Positions 7,595-64,000 of a DNA stretch of 64,000 nucleotides are shown here, piece by piece. Positions within the stretch are counted from its first letter, which is position 1; every line of letters begins with the position of its first letter. The notes under the pieces are model-generated. The model searched no databases. It was not told where the DNA came from and saw nothing but the letters and a program-made list of their open reading frames with translations. This DNA is from Candidatus Sumerlaeales bacterium. Its GTDB lineage: Bacteria > Sumerlaeota > Sumerlaeia > Sumerlaeales > Sumerlaeaceae. The stretch is taken from contig JAKFFN010000055.1 in NCBI GenBank assembly GCA_036675025.1, positions 10,752 through 74,751 of the forward strand, read 5' to 3'. Both the position numbers and the translations under genes were made by a program.

Positions 7595-7619
7595 CGACAA
7601 CATACTGCGAAAACAGCTC

Positions 7620-9370: not shown

Positions 9371-9446
<76 letters not shown>

Positions 9447-9582: not shown

Positions 9583-9628
9583 AAATAAAGGTCGCCGGAC
9601 GCGCCAACTTTGGGCTGCCTCCGGCGAC
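9583..9628 (-). terminator. hairpin terminator after thioredoxin-fold gene
   Basis: GTCGCCGGA...TCCGGCGAC 9-bp stem followed on the minus strand by CTTTATTT. Confidence 0.5.
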
Positions 9629-9667
9629 GATCAGACCTGCCAGGCAAATCGGGTGTATGGTAGCAGA

Positions 9668-10186: not shown

Positions 10187-10300
10187 TTCTCTTGTAGTCC
10201 TCTTTAGGGTGAAATCAAAAACTCATCTGATTCTATAATCAAATGGCGTGCCAAAGGGTCTGTCTCTAACGGGGGGAAGATAGGCAGACCTGTATGTCTG

Positions 10301-10335
10301 AACAACGAAAGCCGGCACACCTTAGTGCGCCGGCT
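10301..10335 (-). terminator. hairpin terminator after Gfo/Idh/MocA gene
   Basis: On the minus strand, an AGCCGGCGCAC/GTGTGCCGGCT stem is followed by TTCGTTGTT. Confidence 0.5.
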
Positions 10336-10471
10336 GCAAATCGCTAGGTTCACAAACGGATGTAGGAACAGGCTGTGAGTGCTAATAGAACCTGCTTCAC
10401 TGAAGCCTGTGAGTCTGGAGGATCTGGTCTAGAGAGATTTTCCGCCCAGTCTGTATGGGAAGTTTACACGC

Positions 10472-11796: not shown

Positions 11797-14700
11797 TTGG
11801 ATTTTGTCCATCTTCACGTACACAGTCACTATTCGCCCGATGGAGTAGCATCCGTTCGCGAACTGGTGCGTTACGCCGAGCGCCTGGGAATGCGGGCGCT
11901 CGCCCTGACGGACCAGGACACTCTCGCCGGTATCCCCGGTTTTTGCGCCGCCTGTCGGGATTTTGGTATACGCCCGGTTATCGGGTGTGATCTTACTATT
12001 GTTCCCATTGCACACGGAACAATAACTCCGGATAGACCTTTTCGTATCGTACTTCTCGCGGAAACCGAGGCTGGGTACCGTAATCTGGTAAGCCTGGTAA
12101 ATCTGGCGCATTCCCATTCAAGGCGTGTTAGAATTGACCTCGACGCGCTGGAAAAGTACTCGGGCGGGCTGATCGCCATGACGGGCAGTTCCTCTTCAGA
12201 ACTTTATCAACTGCTGCTAAACAACCGTATTGAGGAGACCGAGAACTACATCAGGAAACTTGCCAGAATTTTTGGACGGGAAAACCTGGTGTTTCAGCTG
12301 GAAGATGTGGAATCATCGCGACAAAAGCAGATTAACGACCGTACGTTTGCTCTAAGCGACTTCTTAGGCGTAAGAACAGTGGCTACCAATGCGGTTGCCT
12401 TCCTTCGGCCGGAAGACAGTCTTGCCCGCGATTTCCTGCTGCGAGGACGTTTCCCAAGTTTTCTCCAGTTCCAGGCAGCGCGTGAAACTGCTCACTCGCA
12501 GCATTTGGCCAGCGGCATGCAAATGCGCGACAGGTTTATGAAGTATCCCCGTGCCCTGTATGCCACAGAAGAATTGGCAGATCGCTGTTCTTTCCAGCCG
12601 AATTACCAGAAACGCCGTTTCCCTGTACATGATTTTGTGAGAGGCTTCGATGCCGACAGCTTCCTTTGGGACCTCACATTTCGGGAGGCGCGGGCCAAGT
12701 TCGTTGAGCTTTCTTCCGAAATGAAGAACCGCCTCAATGAAGAATTCGACTATATTAAGAGCCACGGGCTTTCAAACAACATGCTGCTGCTTTGGAACAT
12801 CGCGCAGTTTGTCAGGAAAAACAAAATCAGCGTCGGCGTAGGCCGCGGTGATATGATCACCAGCCTCGTGGCCTACATCCTTGGAATTACGCGAATCAAC
12901 CCATTGGATTACAAAATGCGATTCCTGGGTTTTAGCCGTGATAACCAAGGCGAGCCCGCTCTTTCTGTGGAGATGCCCGTTCGGCACATTGAAGCTCTCC
13001 ATGAGTTTATGCGAGGCACATTTGGATCAGATTTCTGCAGCGCTGTAGGCAAGTACACATGGTATCAGCGCCAGGGCCTTGGCCGAGATGTTCGGGCATG
13101 GCTGTATGCCAAGCCGGGACGCGTTGATCATGATTCCGAACTTCAGGAGAATCGAAACCTCAATGTCGACTCTCCCATTGAGGACTTTTTTCCCGGCAAG
13201 GTAGACGGCGTGGCCCTTCCCAGTGCCGAGTTTGAGAATTTCCTGCTATCGCGCCTCTTGCCGCGCCCGAAAGAACTTGTCCTGGATGAAAACCAGTTTG
13301 CGATTTCCTCGGAAAACTTAAACCATCTGACGCCGCGAGTGCCTGTAGATGATCAGTTTGTCACCCAGATGGACGGTCAGGCATTCGACCTGTTTCATAT
13401 TCCTCGTATAACTGTCATTACTGACCCCGTTTTAAACATACTTGATTCCGCGTCTACATGGGTACGAAAAGAGGAAAACGCAGCCTTTGATTCAGACCGC
13501 ATTCCCATGGATGACGAAGCAACTTATGAACTTCTCAGCAGAGGGCTTACTAACGGCATCGAGCCTTTCAGCAGCATTACGTTAAAAAGTCTTCTCCGGG
13601 CCCATCGTCCTAAGAACTTTATGGAGCTCCTTAAAGTAAAAGGTATGGAACGGGCGCCGAATAATGAAGGCAAAGGTGACGTCCGTGAGCATGTGCCGGA
13701 ATGTTTGCTGACCTACCGGTGCGCTTATATTAAGGCACATTATCCCATGAGCTTCATGGCGGCCCTATTGACCCACACCTTCAGGAACCGTCGCAAGTTT
13801 ACAGTTATCCTGCGAGAAGCCAAGCAGATGGGTCTGAAAATTCTGCCGCCGGACATCAACCTGAGCGTGTATGAGTTCAGTCAGGTCCATAAGGCAATCC
13901 GTACAGGTCTTTTAGTTGTAACTGGCATGGGGCCAAAGGCCTACGCAGAACTGCATGATACGCGCAAAGGCGGCGATTTCAATGATCTTATGGATCTAAT
14001 CCGGCGAACTGATTCAAAGCTCATCAACACGCGGCTTTTGAGTAACCTTGTGAAAGTAGGGGCGTTGGATGGCTTCGGATATAAGCGGAGCCAGATGCTG
14101 CATATTATAGAGCACGACGTGGAAGCGGCCCGCCGCAATGCCGGATCGCCCAGCCTGTTTGACGAGCAGGATGATCGGCCACAAACGATCGTTGCCATTG
14201 ATCCGCCCGATGCACCCGAAATGCCATTGCAGGAGATAATCCGTAACGAGATAGCTGCAGCCGGATATTGTATTGGATTTGATCAGTTGCTGCTCTATAA
14301 AGATCTTGTAGACAAATGCCGGGCACTGGCCCCTGGCGACCTCGTGCCACGTATGGTCGGTCGCGAAGTCCATGTGGCTGGGTTTCTCGATCATGTTGAA
14401 AGCGACAGCCCGCTTGTAGAGGAGAAAGAACATATTCTTCTCGACCTGGAAGGCCACGTAGTGACCATGCCTATCAAGATCAGTAGACTTTACGACCAGG
14501 CCTTACACGCGAGTGCGCCTGTGCTTATTGGCGGGACAGTACACCGGCGGAAAGATGAGGTTTATGTAAAAGGTGTGACAGCCTTTACCCTTCGAATGGT
14601 ACAGGAAATGAGTCAGCATGTTAAGGGGCTTGAACTGGATCTGTCCGGCGAAGATGCACGAACTGTTCGCTTAATAAAGGGCCTGGTAAGTCATTACCGC

Positions 14701-50692: not shown

Positions 50693-51133
50693 TCACGGCA
50701 GGTTTTCAATGTCTATTCGATCCTTTGCCCTGTTTGTCGAAAGCTTATTCTTTATAAGGTCATCTTTACCTATGAAACGAGCTGCGACACCCTCAATGTT
50801 CACCCGAATGACATTGGGAGCAGCTTCTTCAAAGCTTACGCCTGATATAGTGTTTAGAAGGTCAACTCGAACGGGCGGAACTCCAAACGTTACAAGATCG
50901 CCAGATTTAGACAGATCGGTTGCCTCAATTGCTTTTCGAGTAAATCCATGCTCTACCAATGCCGATGTTAGCTTCGTGACATTGTCTGCTGTTAACCTAT
51001 AGAAAATGTCTAAGTCTTTTGTGAAGCGAGGAAAACCGTGGACGCCTAATGCGTAGGCTCCAACAACCATGTAATCAACTCTGTGCTTTTCGAGTAACAG
51101 TAATAATTCTCTGAAGTCGACATGGGTAATCAT
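50693..51133 (-). CDS. minimal nucleotidyltransferase-fold protein (pol-beta superfamily)
   Basis: 'VVGAYALGVHGFPRFTKDLDIF' fits the hG[GS]-x9-13-Dh[DE]h pattern. AGGA lies 4 nt upstream of the ATG and an in-frame TAG lies two codons upstream. Confidence 0.65.
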   Translation of the reverse strand: MITHVDFRELLLLLEKHRVDYMVVGAYALGVHGFPRFTKDLDIFYRLTADNVTKLTSALVEHGFTRKAIEATDLSKSGDLVTFGVPPVRVDLLNTISGVSFEEAAPNVIRVNIEGVAARFIGKDDLIKNKLSTNRAKDRIDIENLP

Positions 51134-53059: not shown

Positions 53060-53510
53060 TCCCAGTACGTCCTGTTCAATCAGAGTAAGTGCGCGGGCAG
53101 CTTGACCCATCACCACTAGTACCACTAGATGAGATGGGCTTTAGGGATTCTGTCAAAGGTAGAATTTCGTCTGTAGGCCCAATTTACGGCATTCTATTTT
53201 TGACGGGTTCCTGCGTTGATATTACTGATGTTATAATGCAAATCTTGAAATCCTATTTATTTCGGCCTCCGGCATTGATAATGCAAGACTTGCGAAGATG
53301 TTTTTCGGAATTCCCAAAAAAATTTGCGGTTTGTTGACGTACATTGGTCGCATGTTCACTTTCTGTGTTTTTGTATCACTGTTTTAGCGGAGCTTAACAT
53401 GGCTGGCAATTCCCGCAGGGACCCTTACTGACCCTTACGGATGCTTAATTTCTGCGGGGCCCTGCATTCCGGCGTTGCAATTGGCCATGGAGAAAGGTTC
53501 ATTGCCCACC

Positions 53511-55304
53511 ATGCTGGAAGTCCTTCGAATTACGAACTACGCAATTATTGATGAGCTCGAGGTGGAGTTTAGCCGCGGCCTCACCGCTATTACCGGTGAG
53601 ACGGGTGCAGGTAAGTCGATTATCCTGGGGGCGTTTCGCATTCTGCTGGGAGGGCGGGCCACGAGCGAAGTGGTGCGGTCGGGTTGTCAGCGGGCGGGCA
53701 TTGAAGGTATTTTCCACCAGGTATCGGCAGACGCGGGAGCCTGGCTGAAACACAATGATTTTTACCCGGATGAGCCCGAGGAACAGGATACGCTGATCGT
53801 GCGTCGCGACATCCTGGCAAGTGGTTCGTCACGTAATTTTATCAATGGCCGCTCAGCCAATGTGACCCAGCTGAAGGAACTCGGAACCCTGCTGGTGGAT
53901 ATGCACGGGCAGAACGACCACACAAGGCTACACTCGCCAGTGACGCAGCTGCTGGTGCTGGACAGCTACGGGAGCTACGGCAAAGAACTGAAAGAGTACC
54001 AGTCGGCTTATGTGGAATGGAAATCTGCCCGGGATCGATTTGAGTCGCTTTCGACGGACCAGGGAGATGCCCAGCGGCGGAGGGATTTCCTGGAGTTCCA
54101 GGTGGACGAGATCACCAGGGCAGAGCCTAAACCGGGCGAGGACGAGGAGCTGGATCAGGAGCGCCGGCGGCTGGTAAATGCGGAGCGGCTGACGGAGATC
54201 TGCGGCAGTGTGTGTGACATCCTGTATGAAGGGGAGCGCAGCGAGAACCCGGCAGGTGCGCAGGTGGCAGCCGCCAGCAAGCTTCTCCAGGAGCTGGCAA
54301 CTCTTGATCCGGCACAGGAAAGCCTGGCGGCGGAGGCGGAATCGATCCGGTTTGCCCTGGAGGATTTGTCTGAGAAGGTGCGGGACTACATCGACTCGGT
54401 GGCCGGTGACCCGGAACGGCTGTCACAGGTGGATGACAGGCTGGAACTGCTGAAGAACCTGAAGCGAAAGTATGGCAGTACGCTGGAGGAAGTCATCGCG
54501 ACAGGGGAGAGGCTCGCGGCGGAACTGAACGACATTGTGAACCACGACGCGGCACTGGAGGAGGCGCAGTCTCGGCTGATGGCCGCCGAAAAAACAGCCG
54601 GAGCGGCCGCGGAAAAGCTAACGGCTGCAAGGCAGAAGGCGGCCCGCATATTTGAGAAACAGGTGCAGTCGGTCATGCGCGAACTGGAACTGCCGAAAGC
54701 CGTGCTGAAGATTGAACTTACCTCCGGCACGTCAGTGGAAACCGGTGCGGCAGCAGGCGTTGCGGAAGGCGCAGTGAAAGGTGCTTCAGAAGGCACAGTA
54801 AAAGACCTCTCAGCCAGGGCCGATGTCAGCAGGCGCAGCTTCTCACCGTCTGGCCAGGACACCATTGAGTTCATGGTGAGCCTGAACGCGGGCGAATCGC
54901 CGAAGCCGATGCGTAAAGTAGCGAGCGGCGGCGAGATCAGCCGGATCATGCTGTCGATTAAGAGCGTGCTGGCAGACCGCGATAACGTGCCGACGCTGGT
55001 GTTTGATGAAATTGACACGGGGATCAGCGGTCAGGCCGCGGCACGGGTTGGCGCGCAGCTGGAACAGTTGGCAGCGTCGCACCAGGTGATGTGTATCACC
55101 CACCTGCCGCAAGTGGCAGCGCGAGGGCATCTGCACCTGGTGGTGGAGAAGCAGACGGTGAAAGATCGCACAGTAACTGCAGTGCAGAAGGTAGAAGGCG
55201 AAGAGCGAACCCTGGCGCTGGCGCGGATGCTGAGCGGTCATGAGGTGGATGATACAACGCGCAAGTTCGCAGAGAAGCTGCTGGTGAAGTCCGAGGCGAA
55301 GTGA
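53511..55304 (+). CDS. recN: DNA repair protein RecN
   Basis: 'MLEVLRITNYAIIDELEVEF', Walker A 'GETGAGKS', signature 'ASGGEISR' and Walker B 'LVFDEIDTG'. Confidence 0.92.
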   Translation: MLEVLRITNYAIIDELEVEFSRGLTAITGETGAGKSIILGAFRILLGGRATSEVVRSGCQRAGIEGIFHQVSADAGAWLKHNDFYPDEPEEQDTLIVRRDILASGSSRNFINGRSANVTQLKELGTLLVDMHGQNDHTRLHSPVTQLLVLDSYGSYGKELKEYQSAYVEWKSARDRFESLSTDQGDAQRRRDFLEFQVDEITRAEPKPGEDEELDQERRRLVNAERLTEICGSVCDILYEGERSENPAGAQVAAASKLLQELATLDPAQESLAAEAESIRFALEDLSEKVRDYIDSVAGDPERLSQVDDRLELLKNLKRKYGSTLEEVIATGERLAAELNDIVNHDAALEEAQSRLMAAEKTAGAAAEKLTAARQKAARIFEKQVQSVMRELELPKAVLKIELTSGTSVETGAAAGVAEGAVKGASEGTVKDLSARADVSRRSFSPSGQDTIEFMVSLNAGESPKPMRKVASGGEISRIMLSIKSVLADRDNVPTLVFDEIDTGISGQAAARVGAQLEQLAASHQVMCITHLPQVAARGHLHLVVEKQTVKDRTVTAVQKVEGEERTLALARMLSGHEVDDTTRKFAEKLLVKSEAK

Positions 55305-55319
55305 TAGGGTGACGGGGAT

Positions 55320-55391
55320 GGGTCGGACGGGTCGGACGTGTCGGACGGATCGGACAGGTCGGGCAGGTCGGACAGGTCGGGCAGGTCGGAC
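55320..55391. repeat. 8 x 9-nt tandem array (consensus RGGTCGGAC)
   Basis: The units are gggtcggac, gggtcggac, gtgtcggac, ggatcggac, aggtcgggc, aggtcggac, aggtcgggc, aggtcggac. The array starts 16 nt after the recN stop. Confidence 0.95.
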
Positions 55392-55424
55392 GGGGGGAGA
55401 CTGGGTCTGACTGAAAAAAGCAGG

Positions 55425-55658: not shown

Positions 55659-55734
55659 GCGGGAGTAGCTCAGTTGGTAGAGCACTAGCCTTCCAAGCTT
55701 GTGGTCGCGAGTTCGAGTCTCGTCTCCCGCTCCA
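55659..55734 (+). tRNA. tRNA-Gly (anticodon UCC)
   Basis: GCGGGAG acceptor stem, D-arm GCTC-AGTTGGTA-GAGC, anticodon loop CTTCCAA, T-arm GCGAG-TTCGAGT-CTCGT, encoded CCA, then a T-run. There is one U-U mismatch in the anticodon stem. Confidence 0.88.
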
Positions 55735-55854
55735 TTTTTTCCTTTCATTCTGCCGATAACATTTAGGTTGACCAGCGCCCTTGATTGTCATCAGGTAAGG
55801 CTGATTAAATCACCATGGCCCCACGTGGGGCTAATGATCAGGGGAGACACTATC

Positions 55855-57159
55855 TTGAAGTCTGGAAAACTTTTCTTCGCGCTGCTTTGGCTGTGTATTT
55901 TTGCGACGAGCTTCGCTTCTGCCGATACGGATGTTGCGTTTAGTTACCAGGGCAGAGTTAAGGTTGAGGGACAGCCGTTTGGTGGCAGCGGCCAATTTAA
56001 GTTCGCTATCGTTTCTACGAGCGGAACAGAAACTCTCTGGTCAAATGACGGTACGGGCGCTAACGGTAACGAACCTGCCGGCAGCCTGGCTCTGCCTGTT
56101 GAGGATGGCATCTTTAACGTGATGATTGGTGATACCACGGCAGGTATGCAGCCAATCAGCCCCACTATTTTTGCTTCAAAGACGCCTGTAAAACTTCGCG
56201 TGTGGTTTAACGATGGCTCTCGCGGTTTTCAACAGTTGAACCCTGACCAGACCCTGGTAAACCTGGCCCTAACTACTATCGTAACTGGCGACGAAGACTT
56301 CACCGTTTACGTTAACGGGTCCACTGGCAACGATCGCAATAACGGCCTTAAGCCGGCGACCGCCAAGAAGACGATCCAGGCTGCCATTGATTCGCTGCCT
56401 GAGAGGCTCCGCTGTAACGTAACAGTAGAAATAGCCGACGGTGTTTACCGAGAGAGCGTTTCGATGGCTGGTTTTACTGCCATGCCGAAAAAGAAGCTGC
56501 GCATCATTGGAGATAATACCTGGACACCCTCTCAAGGTGGTTCCCCGGCAGTTATCTTAAATGGATACCTGGCCGGAGAAAGCGGAACCAGAAGCCTGAG
56601 CCACGGGATCTTTGCTGTTGGTTGCTCGAATGTAGAAATTGAGGGGCTAAAGGTGGTTGGTTACCAGGAAGACGGCATACTCACCGAGAACGGCACCTAT
56701 ACCTTAAAGAACTGCGTGATGAACTCGTGCGGTAGACAGGGTTATCTTGGACAAAAGAACTGCTACGCCGAGCTGGTGAATTGCTCTGCGGATTTGAACC
56801 TTCAGAGAGGTCTTTGCCTTTCCGACCTATCCAAAGCAACCCTCACCAGTTGCTCAGCGACACGGAATGGGGAAGTAGGATTAGCACTCTATAAAGAATG
56901 CGCAGTTGAGCTTTTCCAGGCTGGAACCTTTGATTCGAATGGTTCCAAACAGATCGAGTTGGGCGGCTGTAAGATTGCCGCGATGGATCCCATCCAGGTG
57001 AAAAACAGCCGGCCGAATGCGACCTGGGGTATTTTCAATAGCTACGATTCCATAACCTTCTCGTATGAGAAGTTCGTGTTTTCCGGGAACCTTTCGCCGC
57101 AGTTTCAGAACTACATTGGCGGTAAGGCCTTCTACGTTAATGGAAATCCGGCGCCGTAA
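55855..57159 (+). CDS. secreted right-handed beta-helix protein A (YQGR N-domain + DUF1565-like helix)
   Basis: TTG start with GGGGAG 8 nt upstream (alternative ATG at 55834). Signal 'KSGKLFFALLWLCIFATSFASA'. Motifs 'FSYQGRVKVEG...GQFKFAI' and 'FTVYVNGSTGNDRNNGLKPATAKKTIQAAID'. Confidence 0.7.
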   Translation: MKSGKLFFALLWLCIFATSFASADTDVAFSYQGRVKVEGQPFGGSGQFKFAIVSTSGTETLWSNDGTGANGNEPAGSLALPVEDGIFNVMIGDTTAGMQPISPTIFASKTPVKLRVWFNDGSRGFQQLNPDQTLVNLALTTIVTGDEDFTVYVNGSTGNDRNNGLKPATAKKTIQAAIDSLPERLRCNVTVEIADGVYRESVSMAGFTAMPKKKLRIIGDNTWTPSQGGSPAVILNGYLAGESGTRSLSHGIFAVGCSNVEIEGLKVVGYQEDGILTENGTYTLKNCVMNSCGRQGYLGQKNCYAELVNCSADLNLQRGLCLSDLSKATLTSCSATRNGEVGLALYKECAVELFQAGTFDSNGSKQIELGGCKIAAMDPIQVKNSRPNATWGIFNSYDSITFSYEKFVFSGNLSPQFQNYIGGKAFYVNGNPAP

Positions 57160-57350
57160 ACTAACTGATCAGTACGGTTCCAAGAGCGCCAGCAAGCGGG
57201 CGCACTCCCAGAAGGTGCGGCTTTGCGATGGGGGCGCTGCGCGAGTTGCGGGTATCGTTAAAGGTTCTGTGTACTACGTTCTGTTCGGCTTCGCGGAAGC
57301 CGCGGCCGCGATGTCCTTGAGCTGAACTGAAGGTGTCATCTTCACTGCTT

Positions 57351-58583
57351 CTATCCATAGAAAAAGTATCGGTAAACTTCAACGAACTGGATTGATGCCA
57401 TAGCACTAAAAAGCATGACTTTGACAAGGACTCGTGCGGTCGCTTCATTATGGGGAAATCTTGTACTCGCAATTTCTGACAGCCAGATTGTTCCCTGCCA
57501 GGCATAGTAAAATATTACTGGCCACATCATAAAGCATATCCTGGGCTGGATGAAATTTGACGCAAAAAACATAGCCGAAAAACTGCCGAAAAAGAGAATG
57601 ATATAGGGCCATTGGCCGATAACCGGTCGTTTGATCATTCCAAGTAAGGCAGCTAAAACAGGCAGAAAAAGAAACGCCTGAAAAGTGCCAATGACTTGTC
57701 TCAGAAAATTGCCGGATAGGCGGAAAACCTTTTCTTTGAAAGGTACCGAGAATAGTGTTTCTGCAAACCAGACAAGGAAGCCATGCCGTTCGGCGTATTT
57801 TGCCGGCTCAAAAATGTGAGCGACTTTTATGACGTAAAACAGCCAGCAGACGGTGGGAATAGTAGCCGCTGCAACAAATAAAATCGCAGCGCCCCATAGG
57901 CGTTTCATCATACAGATTCCCAAACCCAGCAGGATTAAGCAATAAACCTCTTTACCGAGGACGAGAATGCCAATTGCTAATCCTGTCAGGGCCCAACGTA
58001 CGAAACTTTGATTAGGCAGCCTTTGGGACGGCACTGATTTACTTTCACAGGCCCATACAATCAAGCAGATGGAGAGGATTACGCTAAAATAGGAAAGCAC
58101 CTCTGGCACCATTTGCGCCGTCCAAAAATTAAAGCCGTAGCTTAGTCCGGCAAGAATAGATGCTGCAAAGGCATTGCCCGCGCTCATGCCGAAATATCTG
58201 CTTAGGGAAAAAAACAACCAGAGACTACCAGCAGTTAACATCATATTCCAAACAAGCAAAACTTTAACGGACTGATCATTAATGGCTTGAGGAACATAAC
58301 CGGCAGGTTCTGAGAGTGTAAAATCTTCAGTTATACCTAATACCTGGGCCAGTTTTATCGGAGCAGGATATAGTGGTCGTGGCGCTCTCACAGGTACAGC
58401 CGATTTGGGCAGAAGAAGACCGGATTCCAACCACTGCATAAAGTCTGAGTTCTGGTAGCCGGTCTCTTTGTAAAAGTATTTAGCATAAGAGCCTTCTACC
58501 GGCTGATTGAACCGGAGCAAAAGAACGAAAATTGACAAGGCCAGGAAACAGCAAAGTGCTGCAATCCTCAGGGGGAGAGGCAT
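57351..58583 (-). CDS. polytopic membrane protein A, GT-C/PMT_2-like putative glycosyltransferase
   Basis: About 11-12 TM segments and a first periplasmic loop containing 'RAPRPLYPA'. It is a paralog of 59437..60705. The start could be 58583 (ATG) or 58622 (TTG). Confidence 0.55.
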   Translation of the reverse strand: MPLPLRIAALCCFLALSIFVLLLRFNQPVEGSYAKYFYKETGYQNSDFMQWLESGLLLPKSAVPVRAPRPLYPAPIKLAQVLGITEDFTLSEPAGYVPQAINDQSVKVLLVWNMMLTAGSLWLFFSLSRYFGMSAGNAFAASILAGLSYGFNFWTAQMVPEVLSYFSVILSICLIVWACESKSVPSQRLPNQSFVRWALTGLAIGILVLGKEVYCLILLGLGICMMKRLWGAAILFVAAATIPTVCWLFYVIKVAHIFEPAKYAERHGFLVWFAETLFSVPFKEKVFRLSGNFLRQVIGTFQAFLFLPVLAALLGMIKRPVIGQWPYIILFFGSFSAMFFASNFIQPRICFMMWPVIFYYAWQGTIWLSEIASTRFPHNEATARVLVKVMLFSAMASIQFVEVYRYFFYG

Positions 58584-58706
58584 GTCAGCTCCAATCACAT
58601 TAAAAATGACTGATTTCCCCAAATTTGGCTTATGCTGCTTAATGCGAAACCTCCATCGGCTTGCTTCACGTAAAACGGAATTTCTCTCAGGATAGATGCA
58701 GTGGGA

Positions 58707-59456
58707 TCACTTCCACAGTTCATCCAGCCAACGCAATCCATTAGGAAGATCTAATCCGGCATACTCAATATGGATCACCCGCCGGTGGGTTGGATTTGTT
58801 GCCGGGGAGGATGCATGGAGCAGTAGTGGCCGCATGAGCATGACGCCGCCTTTGGGGACGGGGCACGTGACCGGGTCGTGATTGGATAACCATTCGGCAA
58901 TGCCTGCGTCTTTTAACCGGCCGCTGGTGTGTGAGCCGGGCCATACTTTCAGGGCGCCGTTTTTTTCATCGCAGTCATCCAGGTGGAACCGGAGAGCCAG
59001 CATCTGTTCCAGGATTTGGACGGGTGGCTGGACGTTATGGATATCAGCTTTGATCGTCCATGGGCCGAAACCCGGAGCCTCCGCTTTCTCTCGCACTGCA
59101 ATGGTGACATCCTGATGGGGCGGGACTTTCCAGTTGGCGCCTGGGGTCTTGTCGAAGAAGGTCGCCTTTACAGCGCGGGCGGAGGGACCAAGCACGGATT
59201 TAACCAGCTGCAAAACGTGTGGCTGTATTGCCAGGGACCGAACACGGGCGCTTGAGTATAAGAGGTTACGGACAGCGTATGTGTTTGCACCCGCCGACTG
59301 ACCGTTACCGGAATCAGCTTCTCCCTGGACAGCTTCTATAAGTTCCTGAACCGCAGCCGGCGTCAGGAGACCCGGCAACATGCAATAGCCGAAGTTCTGT
59401 ATGTCGGTTGCGATTTGCTGAAGTGTTGGTTCGGTTTTATCCATAGTCGATGACAT
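58707..59456 (-). CDS. PhyH-family Fe(II)/2-oxoglutarate dioxygenase
   Basis: 'PPHQDV' (HxD), 'NGALKVWPGSH' and 'LLHASSPATNPTHRRV'. 249 aa. Its start overlaps the upstream gene's stop. Confidence 0.8.
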   Translation of the reverse strand: MSSTMDKTEPTLQQIATDIQNFGYCMLPGLLTPAAVQELIEAVQGEADSGNGQSAGANTYAVRNLLYSSARVRSLAIQPHVLQLVKSVLGPSARAVKATFFDKTPGANWKVPPHQDVTIAVREKAEAPGFGPWTIKADIHNVQPPVQILEQMLALRFHLDDCDEKNGALKVWPGSHTSGRLKDAGIAEWLSNHDPVTCPVPKGGVMLMRPLLLHASSPATNPTHRRVIHIEYAGLDLPNGLRWLDELWK

Positions 59457-60705
59457 GATACACTGGAAGGAATTGAATGGCGGCGTGAATCACCAGGGCT
59501 CCAATTTTAAGGTAAGGTTTCCACTTACCGTGAGAAATGCCGAAGATGCGTTTGTCAGCCCAGTCAGCGGCGGCAGAAACTGCAAGCCAGGAAAACCCGC
59601 AAACTACAGGCCACGCCATAAACGAGATCCTGGGCTTAATAAAGTTTGAGCCGAAATACATGGCGGAAAAGGCCAAAGCGAAGCAAACCAGCGGCACCAG
59701 AAGTCGACGTGGGCGGGCAATTACAAACCCGGAAATCATCAGTACGAACGGGTAATAGAGGAAAGCGTCACCCAAGCTTTTAATCTGCAGCAAAAAATTT
59801 CCGGATAGCCGACGGACTGACTCCGAGAGCGGTACAGTGAACAGCGTTTCCTGCAACCAGACAAAGTAGCCATATTTCTTGTTATAGGAGTCTGGATCAA
59901 AGACTTCGAGTACTTCGGTAATGTACAGTCTCCAGAGAATGGGCGGGATTGCGGCGGTAATAATAAAAGCCAGGCAGCTGATCCATTGCCTTTTCCAGCA
60001 CAGGAACATTGCGGCAAAGAGTATGAGGAAGTACAGCTCTTTGCCGAGCAGAAACAGTCCAATTACTGCCCCGGTGATAGCCCAGCGGACTACTGAGGCA
60101 CGTTTGCCGGGAGTTTCCTCAGCCCAGACAGCCAGCACAAATAGCAGAACAACCGCAAAGAACGTGAGGATTTCCGGGGTCAGCTGGGCAACCCAGAAGT
60201 TGAATCCAAAACAGGTTCCTGCAAAGATCGTTGCGCATAACGCATCGAAAAACGTGAGACCATAGTAGCGGCACAAACCAAAAAACAGCCACAAGCTTGC
60301 TACGGCCAGTAGTATATTCTCTACTGCCAGAGTCTTAACGGCGCCGTTCCACACGGCTTCGGGAATTGGTTCGGAGCTGCTTGTCATTGCGTGTTGTTCA
60401 ATTGCCCCCACAGCCCGGGCGACTGGAATGGCAGCCGGATAGAGGGGTCGGGGTGCCCGTGTTACGGTTGTGGACGTGGGAAGTAACAGTCCGGTGTTGA
60501 TCCATCCAGGGGTATCAACATTCTGATGCATCAGATCAGGCCGAAAATGGTGTGCGTGTTCCCCGGGAACCGGTTGGGCAAACCTCAGTAAAAAAGAAGC
60601 AACAACGATGGCAATAATTGCAATCGCTGCTGCTGCAAATTTTATCCGTGTAAGGTCGCGTCCACCGACAAAACGTAAGATGGACAAACTACTGTGATGA
60701 AGCAC
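59437..60705 (-). CDS. polytopic membrane protein B, GT-C/PMT_2-like putative glycosyltransferase
   Basis: It shares 'LLRF.QPV', 'RAPRPLYPA', 'RLSGNFL.Q' and 'FSAM(F/Y)F.SNFI.PRI.FM.WPV' with 57351..58583. Confidence 0.55.
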   Translation of the reverse strand: MLHHSSLSILRFVGGRDLTRIKFAAAAIAIIAIVVASFLLRFAQPVPGEHAHHFRPDLMHQNVDTPGWINTGLLLPTSTTVTRAPRPLYPAAIPVARAVGAIEQHAMTSSSEPIPEAVWNGAVKTLAVENILLAVASLWLFFGLCRYYGLTFFDALCATIFAGTCFGFNFWVAQLTPEILTFFAVVLLFVLAVWAEETPGKRASVVRWAITGAVIGLFLLGKELYFLILFAAMFLCWKRQWISCLAFIITAAIPPILWRLYITEVLEVFDPDSYNKKYGYFVWLQETLFTVPLSESVRRLSGNFLLQIKSLGDAFLYYPFVLMISGFVIARPRRLLVPLVCFALAFSAMYFGSNFIKPRISFMAWPVVCGFSWLAVSAAADWADKRIFGISHGKWKPYLKIGALVIHAAIQFLPVYHVIDYG

Positions 60706-60770
60706 TCTCGGCTTTCGGTGATGTTTTGATTATAGAGGTCGCCTCTGCTAAAGTCATAGCAGTCGTATGG

Positions 60771-62057
60771 CTACCAGTAGACTTCGCCGCCCTTGAACTC
60801 AAAGGTTGGACCCAGGATATTTCCGGAAATGTTGAGGCGGTTTTCGAAGTTGTGGAAGTAGGAATACCAGCCGGCGGAGAGGCCGTAGCCCTTGTTGTTC
60901 TGGACGGTGCCCTGGAAGGTGTTATCGACGCCGATCTGGGAACTGCCGATGCAGTGTATGCCGTGCTCGTTGTTGGAGGAGAAATTGGCAGACGTGAAAA
61001 TATTAACTGTGCTGCTATCCATGAGCAGCAGGCCGTAGCGGCCATTGCTTTTTGAAATGGGCGATGTCATGAAGGATCGGCTCTGGCTTCGCACTTCGAT
61101 GCCGCTGTTGCCGTTATTAGATGCAACGACGTTGTCCAACGTGGAGTGTGCCTGGTTAATAATCTCGAGTCCGACGCCTCCGTTATTGCGGATCAGGCAT
61201 TTCTCGAGATTGAATTTCCCGTTTTCGAATTTGACGCCGGTGGCGGTGGCACCTTCGAAAGCAATGCCGTGGAATTCAACTCCGGTGCAGTCTGCCGCCA
61301 GTACCACGTTTTCTTGAGCCGCTGCGCTGCCTGTGGCGGCGGCGGATATTATTACGGCAGGGGCGCCGGGGGAGGACGGGGTCCAGGCTTCATCGCCTTG
61401 AAAGCTGAGGGTTTCGCCGGGTTTTACGCTGATTCCGTAAACCGTGACTTTTTCGGGATAGGTGCCGTTGGCGATGTCGATCGTGACGCTTGCCATCACC
61501 CGCCCGGGAAGGATATCTACTGCACCCTGGACGGTTTTCTTAGCCTGGTTAGGCTTGAGGCCGGAGTTGCTGTCGTCGCCATTTTGTCCGTCGACGTAGA
61601 TGGTGAAGTCATCGCCGCCGGTCTGCGATGTTATCAGGTTCGTATTGATGAGATTATGGTCGGGATGCAGCTGCTGGAAACCGTTGACGCCGTCATTGAA
61701 CCAGGTGCGCAGTTTTAAGGGTTCCTTGGTTTGAAACACCGTGGAATTGATGGGCAGCATCAGGCCGTTTGCGCCCATTACGACGTTAAATACGCCGTCG
61801 GTCACGGTCAGGGTGAGACCGGTTGTGGGTTCTGAGCCGTCGACGCTAGTGCCGTCGTTTGACCATAGTGTGGAGCTGCCGTTTGGGCTTATGATGGCAA
61901 ACTTGAATTGGCCGTCGCCGTTGTGTTCGACTCCCTGAACCTTTACGCGGCCCTGGTAGTTGAACATGACTGTGCCGTCGGCAAATACTGGCACTGCAGC
62001 AGTTAATGCGGCGACCGCCGTGGTGGTGAGCAGCAAATTTCTTTTAGAAAAAAACAT
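60771..62057 (-). CDS. secreted right-handed beta-helix protein B (paralog of A)
   Basis: Signal 'MFFSKRNLLLTTTAVAALTAAVPVFA'. Motifs 'FNYQGRVKVQG...GQFKFAI' and 'FTIYVDGQNGDDSNSGLKPNQAKKTVQGAVD'. Confidence 0.7.
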   Translation of the reverse strand: MFFSKRNLLLTTTAVAALTAAVPVFADGTVMFNYQGRVKVQGVEHNGDGQFKFAIISPNGSSTLWSNDGTSVDGSEPTTGLTLTVTDGVFNVVMGANGLMLPINSTVFQTKEPLKLRTWFNDGVNGFQQLHPDHNLINTNLITSQTGGDDFTIYVDGQNGDDSNSGLKPNQAKKTVQGAVDILPGRVMASVTIDIANGTYPEKVTVYGISVKPGETLSFQGDEAWTPSSPGAPAVIISAAATGSAAAQENVVLAADCTGVEFHGIAFEGATATGVKFENGKFNLEKCLIRNNGGVGLEIINQAHSTLDNVVASNNGNSGIEVRSQSRSFMTSPISKSNGRYGLLLMDSSTVNIFTSANFSSNNEHGIHCIGSSQIGVDNTFQGTVQNNKGYGLSAGWYSYFHNFENRLNISGNILGPTFEFKGGEVYW

Positions 62058-62142
62058 GGCAGTGACCTTATAGGGCGTACGACCCGTTAGCGAATGTGGT
62101 GACAAAATTTGTCAGCAGGTTGTGACGGAAGAAGGGCGTAGC

Positions 62143-62418
62143 TCAGTACAGAGTCCAGCATGACACGGAAGCTCTTGGTGCGTCTGAGGCGCCTACAGCC
62201 GGTTCGAGGCTGTAGCTTAAGCTGCTGGCTACGCCGGCTGAGCCGGTGTCGTCAGTGTAGCCGACGAGGCTATACTTTTCAGAGCTGGATATGCCGCCGC
62301 CCATGCCTGTGGCTACGTATTCCATCGAGTAACTAGTGGAACGCGGCGTAACGCTGAAGCCTGCAGCGGCAATGGAGAAGATGGCTGCGCATGCGGCGAG
62401 TTTTACCGTGTTTGACAT
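62143..62418 (-). CDS. small secreted Ser/Gly-rich protein with three YS(L/M) repeats
   Basis: Start 'MSNTVKLAACAAIFSIAAAGFS' has GGGGG 9 nt upstream. Repeats are 'SYSMEYVATGMGGGISSS', 'KYSLVGYTDDTGSAGVASS' and 'SYSLEPAVGAS'. Confidence 0.55.
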   Translation of the reverse strand: MSNTVKLAACAAIFSIAAAGFSVTPRSTSYSMEYVATGMGGGISSSEKYSLVGYTDDTGSAGVASSLSYSLEPAVGASDAPRASVSCWTLY

Positions 62419-62524
62419 GATTGGAACCCCCTGACGATGTGGAAAATGTTCTGCCGTCTCTACAGGCACAGCACTACAGACGTAATTCTATCACTGGATA
62501 GGTGACGGGTGGTCAATAAAAAAC

Positions 62525-62601
<77 letters not shown>

Positions 62602-62797: not shown

Positions 62798-63790
62798 TTA
62801 GCCTATCAGGTCGTGGAGGTGGATCATTCCTACGGGGTGGTTTTGCTGGTCGACTACGGGGAGTACGAGGACTTTGCGGTTGCCGTTTTCCATGATCTGG
62901 AGGGCCTGGGTGGCGAGGATGTCGGAGGTGATGCGGAGGGGATCGCGGGTCATTACGCCGCTTACGGGCTGATGGAAGACGTCGTTGACGGTGCGGGCGG
63001 CACTGTCGGCTTCGCGCTGGAGTATGCGGCGGAGGTCGCCGTCTGTGAGGATGCCGCAGAGCTGGCCTTGCTCATTTACGATGGAGACGGCGCCGTGCTT
63101 TTCGGCGGTAATGGCGGCGATGGCTTCGCGGAAGGTGGCGGTTTCTATGACGATTGGGTTGGAGCCGGGTTTCATGAGATCGCCCACGCGCTTGAACTGG
63201 CGGCCGAGGGCGCCGTTGGGGTGGCGGAGGGCGAAGTCGCCGGGCTGAAAACCGCGCTGTTCGAGGAGAACAACGGCGAGGGCATCACCCATGGCGAGGG
63301 CGGCGGTGGTGGATGTAGTTGGGGCGAGGTTGAGGGGGCAGACTTCGCGGTCGACCTGGATGTCGAGAACGATGTCGGCTTCGAGGGCGAGGCGGCTTTT
63401 GAAGTTGCCGGTCATGGCGATGAGGAGGTTTTTGTTGCGCTTAAAGAAGGGGATGCAGGAGACGACTTCTTCGGTGGTGCCGCTGTTGGAGAGGGCGAGG
63501 ACGATGTCGTCGGGCTGGATCATGCCAAGGTCGCCATGGAGGGCTTCACCAGGGTGAATGTAGAAGGCGGGGGTGCCGGTGCTGGCCATGGTGGCTGCGA
63601 TTTTGCGGGCGATGAGGCCGTGTTTGCCCATGCCGGTGAGGACCACGCGGCCGCTGCAGTTGAGGATGGCGGTGATGGCGGCGTCGAAGCTGTCGCCGAT
63701 GCGGCTGGCCATGGCCTGAAGGGCGCAGATTTCCTGCTGGATGACTTCTTGGCCGCGCTGGGCCAGGTTATGGGCGGTATCGGTGGTCAT
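62798..63790 (-). CDS. kdsD: arabinose-5-phosphate isomerase (KdsD/KpsF; SIS + tandem CBS)
   Basis: 'GRVVLTGMGKHGLIARKIAATMASTGTPAFYIHPGEALHGDLGMI' followed by a CBS pair. 330 aa. Confidence 0.9.
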   Translation of the reverse strand: MTTDTAHNLAQRGQEVIQQEICALQAMASRIGDSFDAAITAILNCSGRVVLTGMGKHGLIARKIAATMASTGTPAFYIHPGEALHGDLGMIQPDDIVLALSNSGTTEEVVSCIPFFKRNKNLLIAMTGNFKSRLALEADIVLDIQVDREVCPLNLAPTTSTTAALAMGDALAVVLLEQRGFQPGDFALRHPNGALGRQFKRVGDLMKPGSNPIVIETATFREAIAAITAEKHGAVSIVNEQGQLCGILTDGDLRRILQREADSAARTVNDVFHQPVSGVMTRDPLRITSDILATQALQIMENGNRKVLVLPVVDQQNHPVGMIHLHDLIG

Positions 63791-63825: not shown

Positions 63826-63866
63826 TAGAACGCGGAGAACGGCGAACGGAGAACGGAGAACGCGCC
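63826..63866. repeat. short tandem array of GAGAACG/GAACGGA-type 7-9-nt units
   Basis: The sequence reads agaacgcgg, agaacggcg, aacggag, aacggag, aacgcgc. It lies 36 nt upstream of the kdsD start. Confidence 0.75.
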
Positions 63867-63870
63867 GCAT

Positions 63871-63924
63871 ATAGGGCAGATAGGACCTATAGGACATATA
63901 GGACCAATAGGACATATGGGACAT
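63871..63924. repeat. 6 x 9-nt tandem array (consensus ATAGGACNT)
   Basis: The units are atagggcag, ataggacct, ataggacat, ataggacca, ataggacat, atgggacat. Confidence 0.92.
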
Positions 63925-64000
63925 ACAGGTGGTTGAAGCTGATTGGGGATAATTCTTGTGCCGTTGCTTGATTGTGGCCGTGTTCACTGGATTTTTCCGA

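Follow-up and report, generated by a model that had tools for sequence, protein, structure and literature searches.

A secreted beta-helix gene cassette with GT-C-like and PhyH-family neighbors between recN and kdsD of a Sumerlaeota bacterium: a possible lineage-specific mosaic

Glycosyltransferases of the GT-C type, represented by the PMT_2 clan and its structural relatives (ArnT/GT83, PMT/GT39, ALG9 and ALG12/GT22, PimE and PglB), are polytopic membrane proteins in which the first transmembrane helix (TM1) leads into a long extracytoplasmic loop with an invariant aspartate. Right-handed beta-helix carbohydrate-active proteins, including Pel9A (PL9), the mannuronan epimerases AlgG and AlgE4, RbmB, GH136 and the phage tailspike depolymerases, possess an N-terminal cap and an Asn ladder. 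The mosaic adhesive trimer (MAT) fibres of Bdellovibrio bacteriovorus form a multigene family whose members combine a constant N-terminal domain with a C-terminal recognition domain that varies; for the N-terminal domain, binding to an as yet unidentified surface element has been proposed (PMC10769870). Oxygenases of the PhyH family contain an HxD...H triad and a 2-oxoglutarate (2OG)-binding arginine. Here we describe six genes with likenesses to these systems that lie between recN and kdsD in a 64,000-nucleotide stretch of DNA (the window) from a Candidatus Sumerlaeota bacterium. An earlier note on this DNA offered two working hypotheses for the six, one dedicated system for glycosylation and hydroxylation or a module for lipopolysaccharide (LPS) remodelling. 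In our view, at a probability of roughly 0.55, the block is a lineage-specific mosaic of three layers and not one conserved pathway.

The recN-kdsD interval

The features of the interval, with BH denoting a beta-helix protein and MP a membrane protein, are as follows.

53475..55304, plus strand: recN, forming the conserved left flank (61-65% identity to its counterparts in the Sumerlaeota relatives L007, L008 and L091)
55659..55734, plus strand: tRNA-Gly(UCC), one edge of the variable interval
55834..57159, plus strand: BH-A, predicted Sec-secreted; N-terminal beta-sandwich, conserved cap and divergent right-handed beta-helix (Pfam Beta_helix PF13229, E 7e-11)
57351..58583, minus strand: MP-A, compact 410-aa membrane protein of predicted GT-C fold, an old paralog of MP-B (P0005 in the exhaustive profile search)
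58707..59456, minus strand: PhyH-family Fe(II)/2OG oxygenase (Pfam PhyH PF05721, E 2e-20, 74.6 bits against a cutoff of 22)
59437..60705, minus strand: MP-B, compact 422-aa membrane protein of predicted GT-C fold; TM1, a loop of about 75 aa, then about 11 helices
60771..62057, minus strand: BH-B, predicted secreted; beta-sandwich (28-137), linker and beta-helix (150-428) (Pfam Beta_helix PF13229, E 1e-12)
62143..62418, minus strand: small secreted Ser/Tyr-rich protein of 91 aa with a signal peptide, S-x-x-Y repeats and a C-terminal W-x-L-Y
62798..63790, minus strand: kdsD, arabinose-5-phosphate isomerase with SIS and CBS domains (Pfam), the conserved right flank

All six open reading frames of the block are present where the earlier note had placed them, as is the neighboring tRNA gene, which ARAGORN reports as tRNA-Gly(tcc) on the plus strand. 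The start given for BH-A, which converges on the minus-strand genes, is an in-frame TTG at position 55855, and an ATG is found at 55834, 100 nt downstream of the tRNA. Database gene call P0095 is 441 aa long, the length expected for BH-A starting at this ATG. The flanking RecN is 63-65% identical to that of two Sumerlaeales MAGs and 61% to that of L091, compared with 40% for the best match outside Sumerlaeota, and KdsD is 81-82% identical to its counterparts in L007 and L091. The content between the two flanks differs in each relative compared. In L007 it consists of a PhyH gene, a TIM-barrel gene and a tRNA-Gly, the latter at the kdsD end and thus opposite to its position here, while L091 has a small-protein gene, two BH genes and a DUF488 gene. 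As part of the mosaic reading, we take the interval to be a rearrangement-prone chromosomal site.

The location of the block directly 3' of tRNA-Gly could instead mark a horizontally acquired genomic island carrying self-contained surface-modification cargo. Also consistent with an island are the low GC content of MP-A, the extremely sparse and patchy occurrence of the MP family and the divergence between the window and L005, in which MP-B is far less conserved (64% identity to its ortholog) than the flanking BH genes (85-88%). We consider an island highly improbable. No integrase or other mobility gene was found among the open reading frames (ORF list and Pfam), the window contains no second copy of the tRNA 3' end, the L007 interval has its tRNA at the opposite end, and composition is ordinary in five of the six genes. 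Furthermore, small-protein and BH genes occupy the same kdsD-adjacent position in L091 and PhyH occupies the same interval in L007, which indicates that most of the content is vertically resident. Acquisition of MP-A alone is possible. Its GC content of 0.451 is the lowest of the block (z = -2.0 among the 51 ORFs of the window), so that the greater AT-richness attributed earlier to both membrane-protein genes holds for MP-A, as a modest outlier, but not for MP-B (z = -0.5); recN and kdsD, the comparators then used, are themselves GC-rich extremes. The stated lack of GT2, flippase and Wzx/Wzy genes agrees with Pfam searches of the ORFs to the left of the block; to the right, the window ends about 200 nt past kdsD.

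The small protein and the beta-helix family

The conserved unit of the block is the small protein together with one to four beta-helix paralogs. In 13 Sumerlaeota loci (including L087, L089, L091, L093-095, L097-099, L103, L105 and L113), the gene immediately preceding the first BH gene encodes a homolog of the small protein, which matches no curated family, and BH-B is likewise the first BH gene after the small-protein gene. An iterated HMM of the small domain matches 42 of 80 beta-sandwich loci and none of 80 control loci (1.39 Mb), with 48 matches counted in BH loci and zero in control loci. In a survey of 10-kb flanks, many of them on contigs that are fragments, a small-domain match lies adjacent and on the same strand in 44 of the 85 loci with a BH or beta-sandwich match. 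The small domain is paired with the N-terminal beta-sandwich of the BH proteins across several phyla, and the tightness of this pairing argues for a specific partner rather than chance adjacency. The small protein and variable beta-helix surface proteins constitute a widespread and so far undescribed gene pair. We note that the earlier note had missed the pair as a conserved unit.

BH-A and BH-B are paralogous, with 40% identity over 407 aa (E 6e-98), and share an N-terminus while diverging at the C-terminus, both as had been claimed. Identity between them falls from 57% in the sandwich (28-137) through 49% in the cap (150-240) to 24% in the helix body (241-428); the corresponding family-wide values are 62, 59 and 29%. 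The family to which they belong counts over 246 full-length proteins with a length of about 425 aa, frequently with two to four encoded on one contig, and within it each of the two proteins ranks only about 47th of 62 as a relative of the other. The earlier description of the block as internally duplicated is therefore accurate in that both pairs, BH and MP, are paralogous, but not in the sense of a recent duplication. BH-A has an ortholog of 88% identity in L005, and orthologs of BH-B (51-54%) are found at the same kdsD-adjacent site in L091. The full BH architecture is found almost exclusively in Sumerlaeota, whereas the beta-sandwich by itself extends to Verrucomicrobiota, Chloroflexota and Phycisphaerae.

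The AF2 model of BH-B has a pLDDT of 91.5, and its predicted fold matches those of Pel9A, AlgE4/AlgG, RbmB, GH136 and the P22 tailspike, as well as phage tail fibres and depolymerases, so that the modelled likenesses span polysaccharide lyases, epimerases, glycosidases and phage depolymerases. These matches raise the question of whether the BH proteins simply serve feeding, as ordinary secreted lyases or glycosidases that break down polysaccharides, with the small protein and the GT-C-like proteins as functionally unrelated neighbors. The fold matches to PL9 pectate lyase, rhamnogalacturonan lyase, GH136, GH87 and alginate lyase/epimerases agree with such a role, and variation of the substrate-facing helix within a multigene family would be in keeping with polysaccharide degradation. 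Conservation in the family, however, sits in the N-terminal sandwich and cap and not in the helix body; the only Pfam models matched are Beta_helix and NosD, both generic, with no CAZy-type family-level sequence match found; and the tight cross-phylum pairing of small protein and sandwich speaks against chance adjacency. We regard feeding enzymes as a somewhat unlikely explanation. In the mosaic reading, the first layer would be a two-part cassette in which the small Sec-secreted protein may work jointly with the beta-sandwich, as anchor, adaptor or partner in assembly, to display on the outside of the cell variable beta-helices that bind or cleave carbohydrates. Such a cassette would be like fibres and tailspikes in its logic, with a constant N-terminus and a variable tip.

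The membrane proteins and the oxygenase

MP-A and MP-B share 42% identity over 391 aa (E 8e-104), in agreement with the paralogy proposed earlier; they are each other's nearest relatives, yet old paralogs. Neither matches any Pfam or NCBIfam model. An exhaustive profile search recovered 51 cluster representatives of the family among 1.84 billion. PMT_2 is matched by 15 of 40 family members, and two distant members, among those individually checked, exceed the Pfam gathering cutoff for PMT_2. The loop after TM1 of MP-B holds an R-A-P-R-P-L-Y-P motif and Asp64, which is invariant across the 40 family sequences, as anticipated for a conserved acidic residue in the first loop; Gln61, Asp64, Trp68, Arg83, Arg86, Pro87, Lys222, Glu223 and Arg359 are invariant in the close subfamily. 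The AF2 model of MP-B has a pTM of 0.74, with a pLDDT below 50 in the Asp64 loop. Its top Foldseek matches are ALG12, ALG9, ArnT, PglB and PimE (probability 0.96-1.0), with Pmt4 also among the best; TM scores of about 0.5 for the best four and 0.36-0.40 for PglB and PimE make this a moderate match (E 1e-3). Taken together, the distant family relationships and the modelled fold support the assignment of both proteins as GT-C-like and distantly related to PMT_2, as the earlier note had suggested. A transporter fold was also considered for MP-B, but the MFS and RND matches reach a probability of at most 0.33 and a TM score of at most 0.18.

The oxygenase retains His114-x-Asp116, His214 and the Arg of an RRV motif in seven relatives and has neither a signal peptide nor an N-terminal hydrophobic segment. 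No equivalog-level assignment was found for it. Its gene and that of MP-B overlap by 20 nt (PhyH start 59456, MP-B stop 59437), confirming the overlap described before, and this overlap and the common strand suggest co-expression. A homolog of 59% identity lies between recN and kdsD in L007 without MP or BH genes. As the third layer of the mosaic, PhyH would be an intact Fe(II)/2OG enzyme of the cytoplasm whose gene had been in the interval beforehand; it is probably co-transcribed with MP-B and appears evolutionarily linked to neither the MP nor the BH genes.

A role in remodelling the LPS core or lipid A has little likelihood; it would pair an ArnT-like GT-C that attaches a sugar to lipid A or Kdo with a dioxygenase that, like KdoO or LpxO, hydroxylates Kdo or an acyl chain. 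This reading draws on the adjoining kdsD, a gene of Kdo synthesis, on ArnT among the best fold matches and on a cytoplasmic oxygenase, as KdoO/LpxO chemistry would need. However, L007 and L091 share the kdsD adjacency with quite different content, ALG9 and ALG12 fit the MP-B fold at least as well as ArnT, and the oxygenase matches PhyH alone and no KdoO-type or LpxO-type Pfam family. In addition, none of the inspected loci places the MP relatives, or the PhyH relatives in other phyla, next to lipid A or Kdo genes.

Synteny in relatives bears most directly on whether the block is one system. In L005 and L006 a BH-B-like gene is followed by a single MP gene and then by a BH-A-like gene in convergent orientation; PhyH and a second MP are absent, the gene missing from L005 being MP-A. 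In L091, kdsD, the small gene and two BH genes stand at the same site with neither MP nor PhyH. No MP family member was found within 10 kb of 80 BH-type loci or within 8 kb of six PhyH loci, and neither BH nor PhyH genes lie near four more distant MP relatives. The idea of a single dedicated system is not supported by these patterns or by the solitary PhyH of L007: across related genomes, the small and BH genes co-occur, BH and MP genes do so only here and in a close relative, and PhyH does not follow either. Because BH-MP synteny outside the window is confined to that close relative, it is weak evidence for or against coupling.

The same observations weigh on the possibility that the two GT-C-like proteins are protein O-glycosyltransferases (PMT or TMTC/TMEM260-like) whose dedicated substrates are the BH proteins or the small protein, with PhyH hydroxylating these substrates or the sugar donor. 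Five genes on one strand with short gaps, the MP-B/PhyH overlap, the BH-MP-BH order kept in L005/L006 and the relationship of the MP family to PMT_2, the clan of protein O-mannosyltransferases, are in keeping with it. So are the Ser- and Thr-rich composition of the small protein and of the BH linker, and the presence of PMT_2 proteins within 6 kb of two other BH cassettes (120 neighboring ORFs). The orthologous cassette of L091 nevertheless lacks MP and PhyH, L005 lacks PhyH and the second MP, the 80 BH-type loci have no MP family member nearby, the MP relatives of four other lineages have no BH neighbors, and an oxygenase lacking a signal peptide is unlikely to act in the periplasm, which also speaks against the periplasmic hydroxylation proposed earlier. 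We judge this explanation unlikely. In the mosaic reading the two old MP paralogs, the second layer, would have been inserted among the BH genes as an accessory of this lineage only. They may transfer a sugar from a polyprenyl-phosphate carrier, at the outer face of the cytoplasmic membrane, to the adjacent secreted proteins or to an envelope glycan bound by those proteins. MP relatives in L004 and L002/L003 adjoin other large polytopic membrane proteins, that of L004 being a PMT_2 member, and a distant MP relative is coupled to oxygenase-like DUF455 genes. Given this coupling, the MP-B/PhyH overlap and the common strand, a functional link between GT-C and oxygenase is possible.

Comparison with known systems

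The signature motifs of the MP family (Q-N-x-D...W, R-A-P-R-P-L-Y-P, L-G-K-E and P-R-I-x-F-M-x-W-P) are, to our knowledge, not those of the ArnT, PMT, ALG9, ALG12, PimE or PglB families. MP-A and MP-B resemble these enzymes in the long loop after TM1 and its invariant Asp, GT-C enzymes provide the best fold matches for MP-B, and distant relatives pass the PMT_2 threshold. Unlike the named GT-C families, MP-A and MP-B match no curated model themselves, are compact with no soluble C-terminal domain and belong to an extremely rare family. The oxygenase has a full-length Pfam PhyH match and a conserved triad and 2OG-binding Arg; the closest solved structure is a 'putative oxygenase' (PDB entry 4xaa; E 1e-6, 80 residues aligned).

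BH-B superposes on the right-handed beta-helix carbohydrate-active proteins, cap and Asn ladder included, with a Foldseek probability of 1.0, but at a sequence identity of just 8-15%. The BH proteins differ from them in having no family-level match and no identified conserved catalytic residues, and in a helix body that is their least conserved part. We know of no small partner reported for MAT proteins. The sandwich sequences give consistent but weak matches to the MAT N-terminal domain, with 11 of 12 matching the Bdello_MAT_N model and no other (about 21 bits against a cutoff of 60). At about 425 aa, the BH proteins are short and have neither the long fibre shaft nor the S74 domain of MAT fibres, but like them they form a multigene family that combines a constant N-terminal domain with a variable C-terminal one.

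Gene content and history of the recN–kdsD interval

The block lies between recN and kdsD and comprises genes for two secreted beta-sandwich and beta-helix proteins (BH-A and BH-B), two GT-C-like membrane proteins (MP-A and MP-B, 410 and 422 residues), a PhyH-type Fe(II)/2-oxoglutarate (2OG) oxygenase and a 91-residue secreted Ser/Tyr-rich protein, referred to below as the small protein. All six open reading frames proposed in the earlier note were confirmed where it had placed them.

Features of the block and its flanks
53475–55304, recN, left flank of the block
55659–55734, tRNA-Gly(tcc)
55834–57159, plus strand, BH-A, Pfam Beta_helix
57351–58583, minus strand, MP-A, no Pfam or NCBIfam match
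58707–59456, minus strand, PhyH oxygenase, Pfam PhyH
59437–60705, minus strand, MP-B, no Pfam or NCBIfam match
60771–62057, minus strand, BH-B, Pfam Beta_helix
62143–62418, minus strand, small protein, no curated family
62798–63790, kdsD (SIS and CBS domains), right flank of the block

Both pairs are paralogous, as had been proposed: BH-A and BH-B share 40% identity over 407 residues (E 6e-98), and MP-A and MP-B 42% over 391 residues (E 8e-104). The paralogs are old, and a recent tandem duplication was rejected for this reason. Within the BH pair the beta-sandwich is 57% identical, the cap with the first coils 49% and the helix body 24%, matching the earlier description of similar N-termini and diverged C-terminal helices. 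Signal-like hydrophobic segments are found at the N-termini of BH-A, BH-B and the small protein; the N-terminus of the PhyH oxygenase has none.

The housekeeping flanks encode PFK, AlaRS, TatD, two DUF507 proteins, YebC, RecN and KdsD. The flank ORFs inspected include no Wzx, Wzy, exporter or GT2, and a classical EPS or O-antigen locus was rejected for this reason; neither a GT2 donor synthase nor a flippase was present among them. A defence system was rejected because a PADLOC search gave no match. The membrane-protein genes had been described as AT-rich by comparison with recN and kdsD. Among the 51 window ORFs this holds for MP-A, the only low-GC gene of the block (0.451, z = −2.0), but MP-B is ordinary and the two comparators are the high-GC extremes of the window. 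An integrative genomic island linked to the tRNA is also unlikely, as no integrase is encoded among the ORFs, no att-like direct repeat of the tRNA-Gly 3' end was found and MP-A alone is deviant in composition. Promoter-like sites were no commoner than in shuffled sequences and terminator-like sites were about twice as common (16 versus 8.5 ± 3.0); both scans left the operon structure undefined.

Two further features of the window were noted. Short tandem repeats with 7-nt and 9-nt units occupy intergenic positions around recN, the small-protein gene and kdsD, at 55316–55394 (unit GGACGGGTC, 8.8 copies), 62520–62579 (GTAGAAA, 6.9 copies), 63833–63862 (CGGAGAA, 4.3 copies) and 63868–63929 (CATATAGGA, 6.9 copies), and border the variable recN–kdsD interval on both sides; they may take part in recombination or phase variation, or have no role. 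The lowest-GC ORF of the window (50693–51133, minus strand; GC 0.433, z = −2.5) is a DUF6036/DUF2204 nucleotidyltransferase gene, perhaps a mobile one or one of toxin–antitoxin type.

The RecN of the window is 63–65% identical to those of two Candidatus Sumerlaeota MAGs, and its best match outside Sumerlaeota is 40% identical. Two related 2.8-kb contigs (L005 and L006) carry, in order, the C-terminus of a BH-B-like gene (85% identity), a single MP gene whose product is closer to MP-B than to MP-A (64 and 41% identity, respectively) and a convergent BH-A-like gene (88%). The stop codons of the latter two genes are only about 30 nt apart, and PhyH and MP-A are therefore absent there. The order in contig L091 is kdsD (81%), the small-protein gene (45%) and two BH genes (51 and 54%), then DUF488 and recN (61%) on the other strand, YebC and two DUF507 genes. 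The interval thus corresponds to that of the window and has the same small-protein and BH genes next to kdsD, without MP or PhyH. In L007, from a Sumerlaeales MAG, recN is followed by a PhyH homolog (59%), a TIM-barrel protein, tRNA-Gly(tcc) and kdsD (82%), with neither BH nor MP. We note that this PhyH homolog (11813–12433, minus strand) is about 45 N-terminal residues shorter, its open frame beginning at the equivalent of residue 47, and it may be truncated or use a different start.

The different contents of the interval in the window, L091 and L007 identify it as a rearrangement hot spot. PhyH and the small-protein and BH genes are each resident in it, in different lineages, and the MP genes are a lineage-specific addition. 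Comparison of the window (59437–60705) with L005 (419–1678) gives 64% protein and 66% nucleotide identity for the MP gene, against 85–88% and 76–80%, respectively, for the flanking BH genes. The MP gene is thus far more diverged than its neighbours, which fits a fast-evolving or exchanged surface-modifying gene.

The earlier note had proposed that the block encodes one periplasmic glycosylation and hydroxylation system, and the co-orientation and overlapping frames seen in this one window did suggest a system. The relatives L005/L006, L091 and L007 split the block into separate parts and do not support that proposal; that three relatives sufficed to dissolve the system is a caution for the reading of gene neighbourhoods in general.

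The membrane proteins and the PhyH oxygenase

Relatives of the membrane proteins are rare. A word-indexed search of 5.8 billion proteins identified three relatives, and two such searches gave only four hits each; a profile search run exhaustively over 1.84 billion cluster representatives yielded 51 family members, 13 of them at E below 1e-80. Pattern scans gave no confirmed relative in 185,579 species-representative genomes and one locus in metagenomes. Neither MP-A nor MP-B has a significant match in Pfam, NCBIfam, PADLOC or the sequences of the PDB. When 40 family members were scanned singly, 15, all of them distant, matched Pfam PMT_2 (PF13231); two of the family members, P0021 and P0025, which match the MP profile with E values of 6e-14 and 6e-12, score 33.1 and 26.9 bits, above the gathering threshold of 26.1 bits. 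MP-A and MP-B themselves do not match this model and by Pfam's own rule are not members. Since the matches occur only in distant relatives, the link of MP-A and MP-B to PMT_2 is transitive. Alignment of the MP profile with the PMT_2 protein of L004, a contig carrying an MP relative, gave a probability of 0.14 (hhalign), a value that is uninformative because the template is one sequence only.

Hydropathy and AF2 secondary structure place TM1 of MP-B at residues 19–42, followed by a loop (43–115) and about 11 further helices, an arrangement that agrees with the GT-C pattern of at least ten transmembrane helices with a long extracytoplasmic loop after TM1. The AF2 model (pTM 0.74, pLDDT 69) has ALG12, ALG9, ArnT, PglB, PimE and Pmt4 as its top Foldseek matches in the PDB (probability 0.96–1.0); the wider list adds ALG3, AftA and EmbA/B, with probabilities mostly of 0.75–1.0 and a few lower. 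TMq reaches 0.53 and the best E is 1.3e-3. Transporters of the MFS and RND types are interleaved in this list at probabilities of 0.33 or less and TM values of 0.18 or less, and a transporter identity was rejected on these probabilities. At a pTM of 0.74, the model gives moderate support to a GT-C fold for MP-B. Asp64, in the loop of about 75 residues after TM1, is invariant in 40 of 40 family sequences, although this loop is modelled at pLDDT below 50, too poorly to be superposed on the catalytic Asp of ArnT, PglB and the ALG enzymes. The close subfamily is marked by invariant Gln61, Asp64, Trp68, Arg83, Arg86, Pro87, Lys222, Glu223 and Arg359.

The PMT_2 matches of distant kin, the fold matches and the conserved residues together support at the superfamily level the GT-C resemblance suggested in the earlier note. 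MP-A and MP-B are a new, uncurated subfamily inside the known GT-C superfamily. With its signature motifs and invariant loop-1 Asp outside every curated model, this rare subfamily adds to the range of sequences known for lipid-linked-sugar transferases; its members offer a small, domain-free scaffold for structural work. The two proteins would act as lipid-linked-sugar transferases at the outer face of the cytoplasmic membrane, with the adjacent secreted proteins, or a glycan recognized by them, as the possible acceptor.

Elsewhere, MP relatives tend to have other large polytopic membrane proteins encoded close by. The neighbour in L004 is the PMT_2 member. In L002 (11061–12815, minus strand) and L003 (4038–5441, minus strand), both high-GC contigs, a conserved convergent gene adjoining the MP homolog encodes a 584-residue polytopic protein without a Pfam match, which may be a second uncharacterized partner of the family. 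Such neighbours, and the two MP copies in the window, would be in keeping with the stepwise assembly of a glycan outside the cytoplasm. In L002 a stretch of some 2.6 kb (6962–9600), upstream of the MP homolog, contains repeated sequence and no convincing ORF; its spurious ORF translations repeat 'PLTTTPSPPLHQSRHHCGTGVSPVK', and the stretch may represent an RNA gene or an array of repeats. In contig L001 a RiPP-like cluster (5483–11290) ends with the gene of a distant MP relative (35% identical), preceded in order by an 84-residue ORF, a flavoprotein (PF02441), PqqD, a 52-residue ORF, an HprK-like P-loop protein, a 176-residue ORF and two DUF455 genes. The second of these ferritin-like di-iron genes overlaps the MP start, and the MP relative is translationally coupled to two di-iron-oxygenase-like genes. 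Its place in such a cluster suggests that peptides may sometimes be acted on by members of the rare GT-C family.

The oxygenase scores 74.6 bits against Pfam PF05721 (cutoff 22). Its HxD...H iron triad (His114, Asp116 and His214) and the 2OG-binding Arg of an R-R-V motif are conserved in seven relatives, including ones from Thermoanaerobaculia, Verrucomicrobiota and Planctomycetota, and score, triad and Arg together place it in the PhyH family. The loci of these relatives have no MP or BH neighbour, save one (L122) in which the genes are 7 kb apart. Its nearest solved structure by sequence is 4xaa, a 'putative oxygenase' (E 1e-6 over 80 residues).

The alternative proposal of the earlier note, an LPS core or lipid A remodelling module, drew on the neighbouring kdsD and on analogy with LpxO and KdoO. 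PhyH was the sole family matched by the oxygenase, adjacency to kdsD is common to loci of unrelated content, and the loci inspected for MP and PhyH relatives elsewhere contain no lipid A or Kdo gene neighbours; the proposal was not upheld. In the resources searched, no characterized locus for polysaccharides or for LPS modification matched the block.

The 20-nt overlap of MP-B and PhyH suggests co-translation in the window, to which this pairing is unique. The oxygenase is probably cytoplasmic and simply co-located with the other genes of the block. We nevertheless keep a GT-C/oxygenase link open because of this overlap and the coupling of the L001 relative to DUF455 genes.

The small protein and beta-helix cassette

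The conserved unit of the block is the small protein together with BH. We define the cassette by a small secreted protein that has S-x-x-Y repeats, terminates in W-x-L-Y and is encoded directly upstream of at least one sandwich and beta-helix protein of about 425 residues; in the window the small-protein gene (62418–62143) precedes BH-B (62057–60771). In an HMM survey of all the loci collected, the first BH gene is immediately preceded by a small-protein homolog in the window and in 12 further Sumerlaeota loci. Common to these small proteins are a signal peptide, a G-G-G turn set among S-x-x-Y repeats and (D/C)-W-x-L-Y at the C-terminus. In the same survey no MP homolog lay within 10 kb of any of 80 BH-type loci, and the one PhyH homolog was 7 kb distant.

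The BH family numbers over 246 full-length proteins of about 425 residues, from sources named Sumerlaeaceae and often in two to four copies per contig. Arrays following a small ORF hold three or four BH genes in L087 and L088, three in L089 and two in L091. In species-representative genomes, proteins with the complete architecture are limited essentially to Sumerlaeota. On its own, the beta-sandwich stands at the head of larger proteins in Verrucomicrobiota, Chloroflexota/Anaerolineae, Phycisphaerae and other groups. The model of BH-B is confident (pLDDT 91.5) and consists of a signal peptide, a beta-sandwich (28–137), a flexible linker and a beta-helix (150–428). Across the family the sandwich and the cap are 62 and 59% identical, respectively, and the helix body 29%; invariant residues lie mainly in the sandwich and cap; by these identities the module is constant at its N-terminus and variable in the helix.

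Iteration of the small-domain HMM revealed a related domain of about 65 residues beside beta-sandwich proteins of other phyla, with the pattern Y-x-I-D-W...G-G-G-G-x-S...Y-x-V-x-G-T-I-G-Q-P...Y-x-L-x-G-G-F-W. The beta-sandwich loci gave 48 matches in 1.07 Mb, in 42 of 80 loci, against none in 1.39 Mb from 80 unrelated recN loci. When the set is widened to the 85 loci that match either BH or the beta-sandwich, 44 have an adjacent small-domain match on the same strand. No curated family covering the small domain was found in the libraries searched, and the small/beta-sandwich pair, the most interesting by-product of the analysis, appears to be undescribed in them.

Enrichment analysis of the neighbourhoods of 18 Sumerlaeota cassettes gave no recurrent partner family. 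Two individual neighbourhoods are worth recording. In L089 (10948–19926 and 249–5439) a cassette with three BH genes has Tad/TadE-like pilus genes on one side and, on the other, a nonulosonic-acid-type sugar pathway (NTP_transferase, epimerase, DegT, NeuB, formyltransferase, CTP_transf_3 and Epimerase_2), with HEPN/NTase pairs interspersed; this glycan-rich context does not recur among the 18. In L087 a Methyltransf_24 gene (5406–6410) lies inside a four-gene BH array, which is followed by genes for a radical-SAM/SPASM protein and a 1384-residue DUF1565/beta-helix protein.

To our knowledge, the Sumerlaeota have no well-studied cultured model, and any lead on their surface biology is of some value, although no long-standing open question is touched directly. 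The small/beta-sandwich pairing is statistically clean and offers a concrete candidate for the docking of surface proteins with a constant N-terminus and a variable tip.

A possible docking role and known systems

The small protein and the beta-sandwich would act together to dock or assemble extracellular proteins bearing a variable glycan-binding or glycan-cleaving beta-helix. A further, more tentative reading of these data, to which we assign a probability of about one in five, is that the small domain and the sandwich form a hitherto unrecognized two-component docking system found across several phyla and distantly akin to the dock of MAT fibres. The small protein would then serve as the cell-surface partner (an anchor, adaptor or assembly factor) of modular surface proteins with interchangeable C-terminal domains, which are beta-helices in Sumerlaeota, while Verrucomicrobiota and Chloroflexota have larger proteins. 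In the lineage of the window the rare, fast-evolving GT-C pair would glycosylate the system or its glycan ligand and so vary the cell surface.

The BH proteins, like the PhyH oxygenase, belong as ordinary members to broad superfamilies. The helix of BH-B has fold matches to PL9 pectate lyase, the epimerases AlgE4 and AlgG, RbmB, GH136, GH87 and phage tailspikes and depolymerases. A tblastn search of GenBank phages gave no match to BH-B, so that the tailspike likeness is at fold level only, and likeness to the lyase and hydrolase beta-helix enzymes was likewise found only at this level. The sandwich profile has no relative among PDB sequences, its sole match being a spurious one to Rab27 (E 0.11). 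The only curated model that the sandwich touches is that of the N-terminal region of the Bdellovibrio MAT fibres (NCBIfam NF053851), which matches 11 of 12 isolated sandwich domains weakly but consistently (best E 2.4e-5); full BH proteins score 17–21.5 bits, below the 60-bit cutoff, and are not members. We treat this sequence likeness as a lead only. The constant N-terminal domain of the MAT fibres has been proposed to bind an unidentified element of the predator surface (PMC10769870). How such fibres dock on the cell was a question left open in that study; the docking reading would make the sandwich a distant relative of their N-terminal dock.
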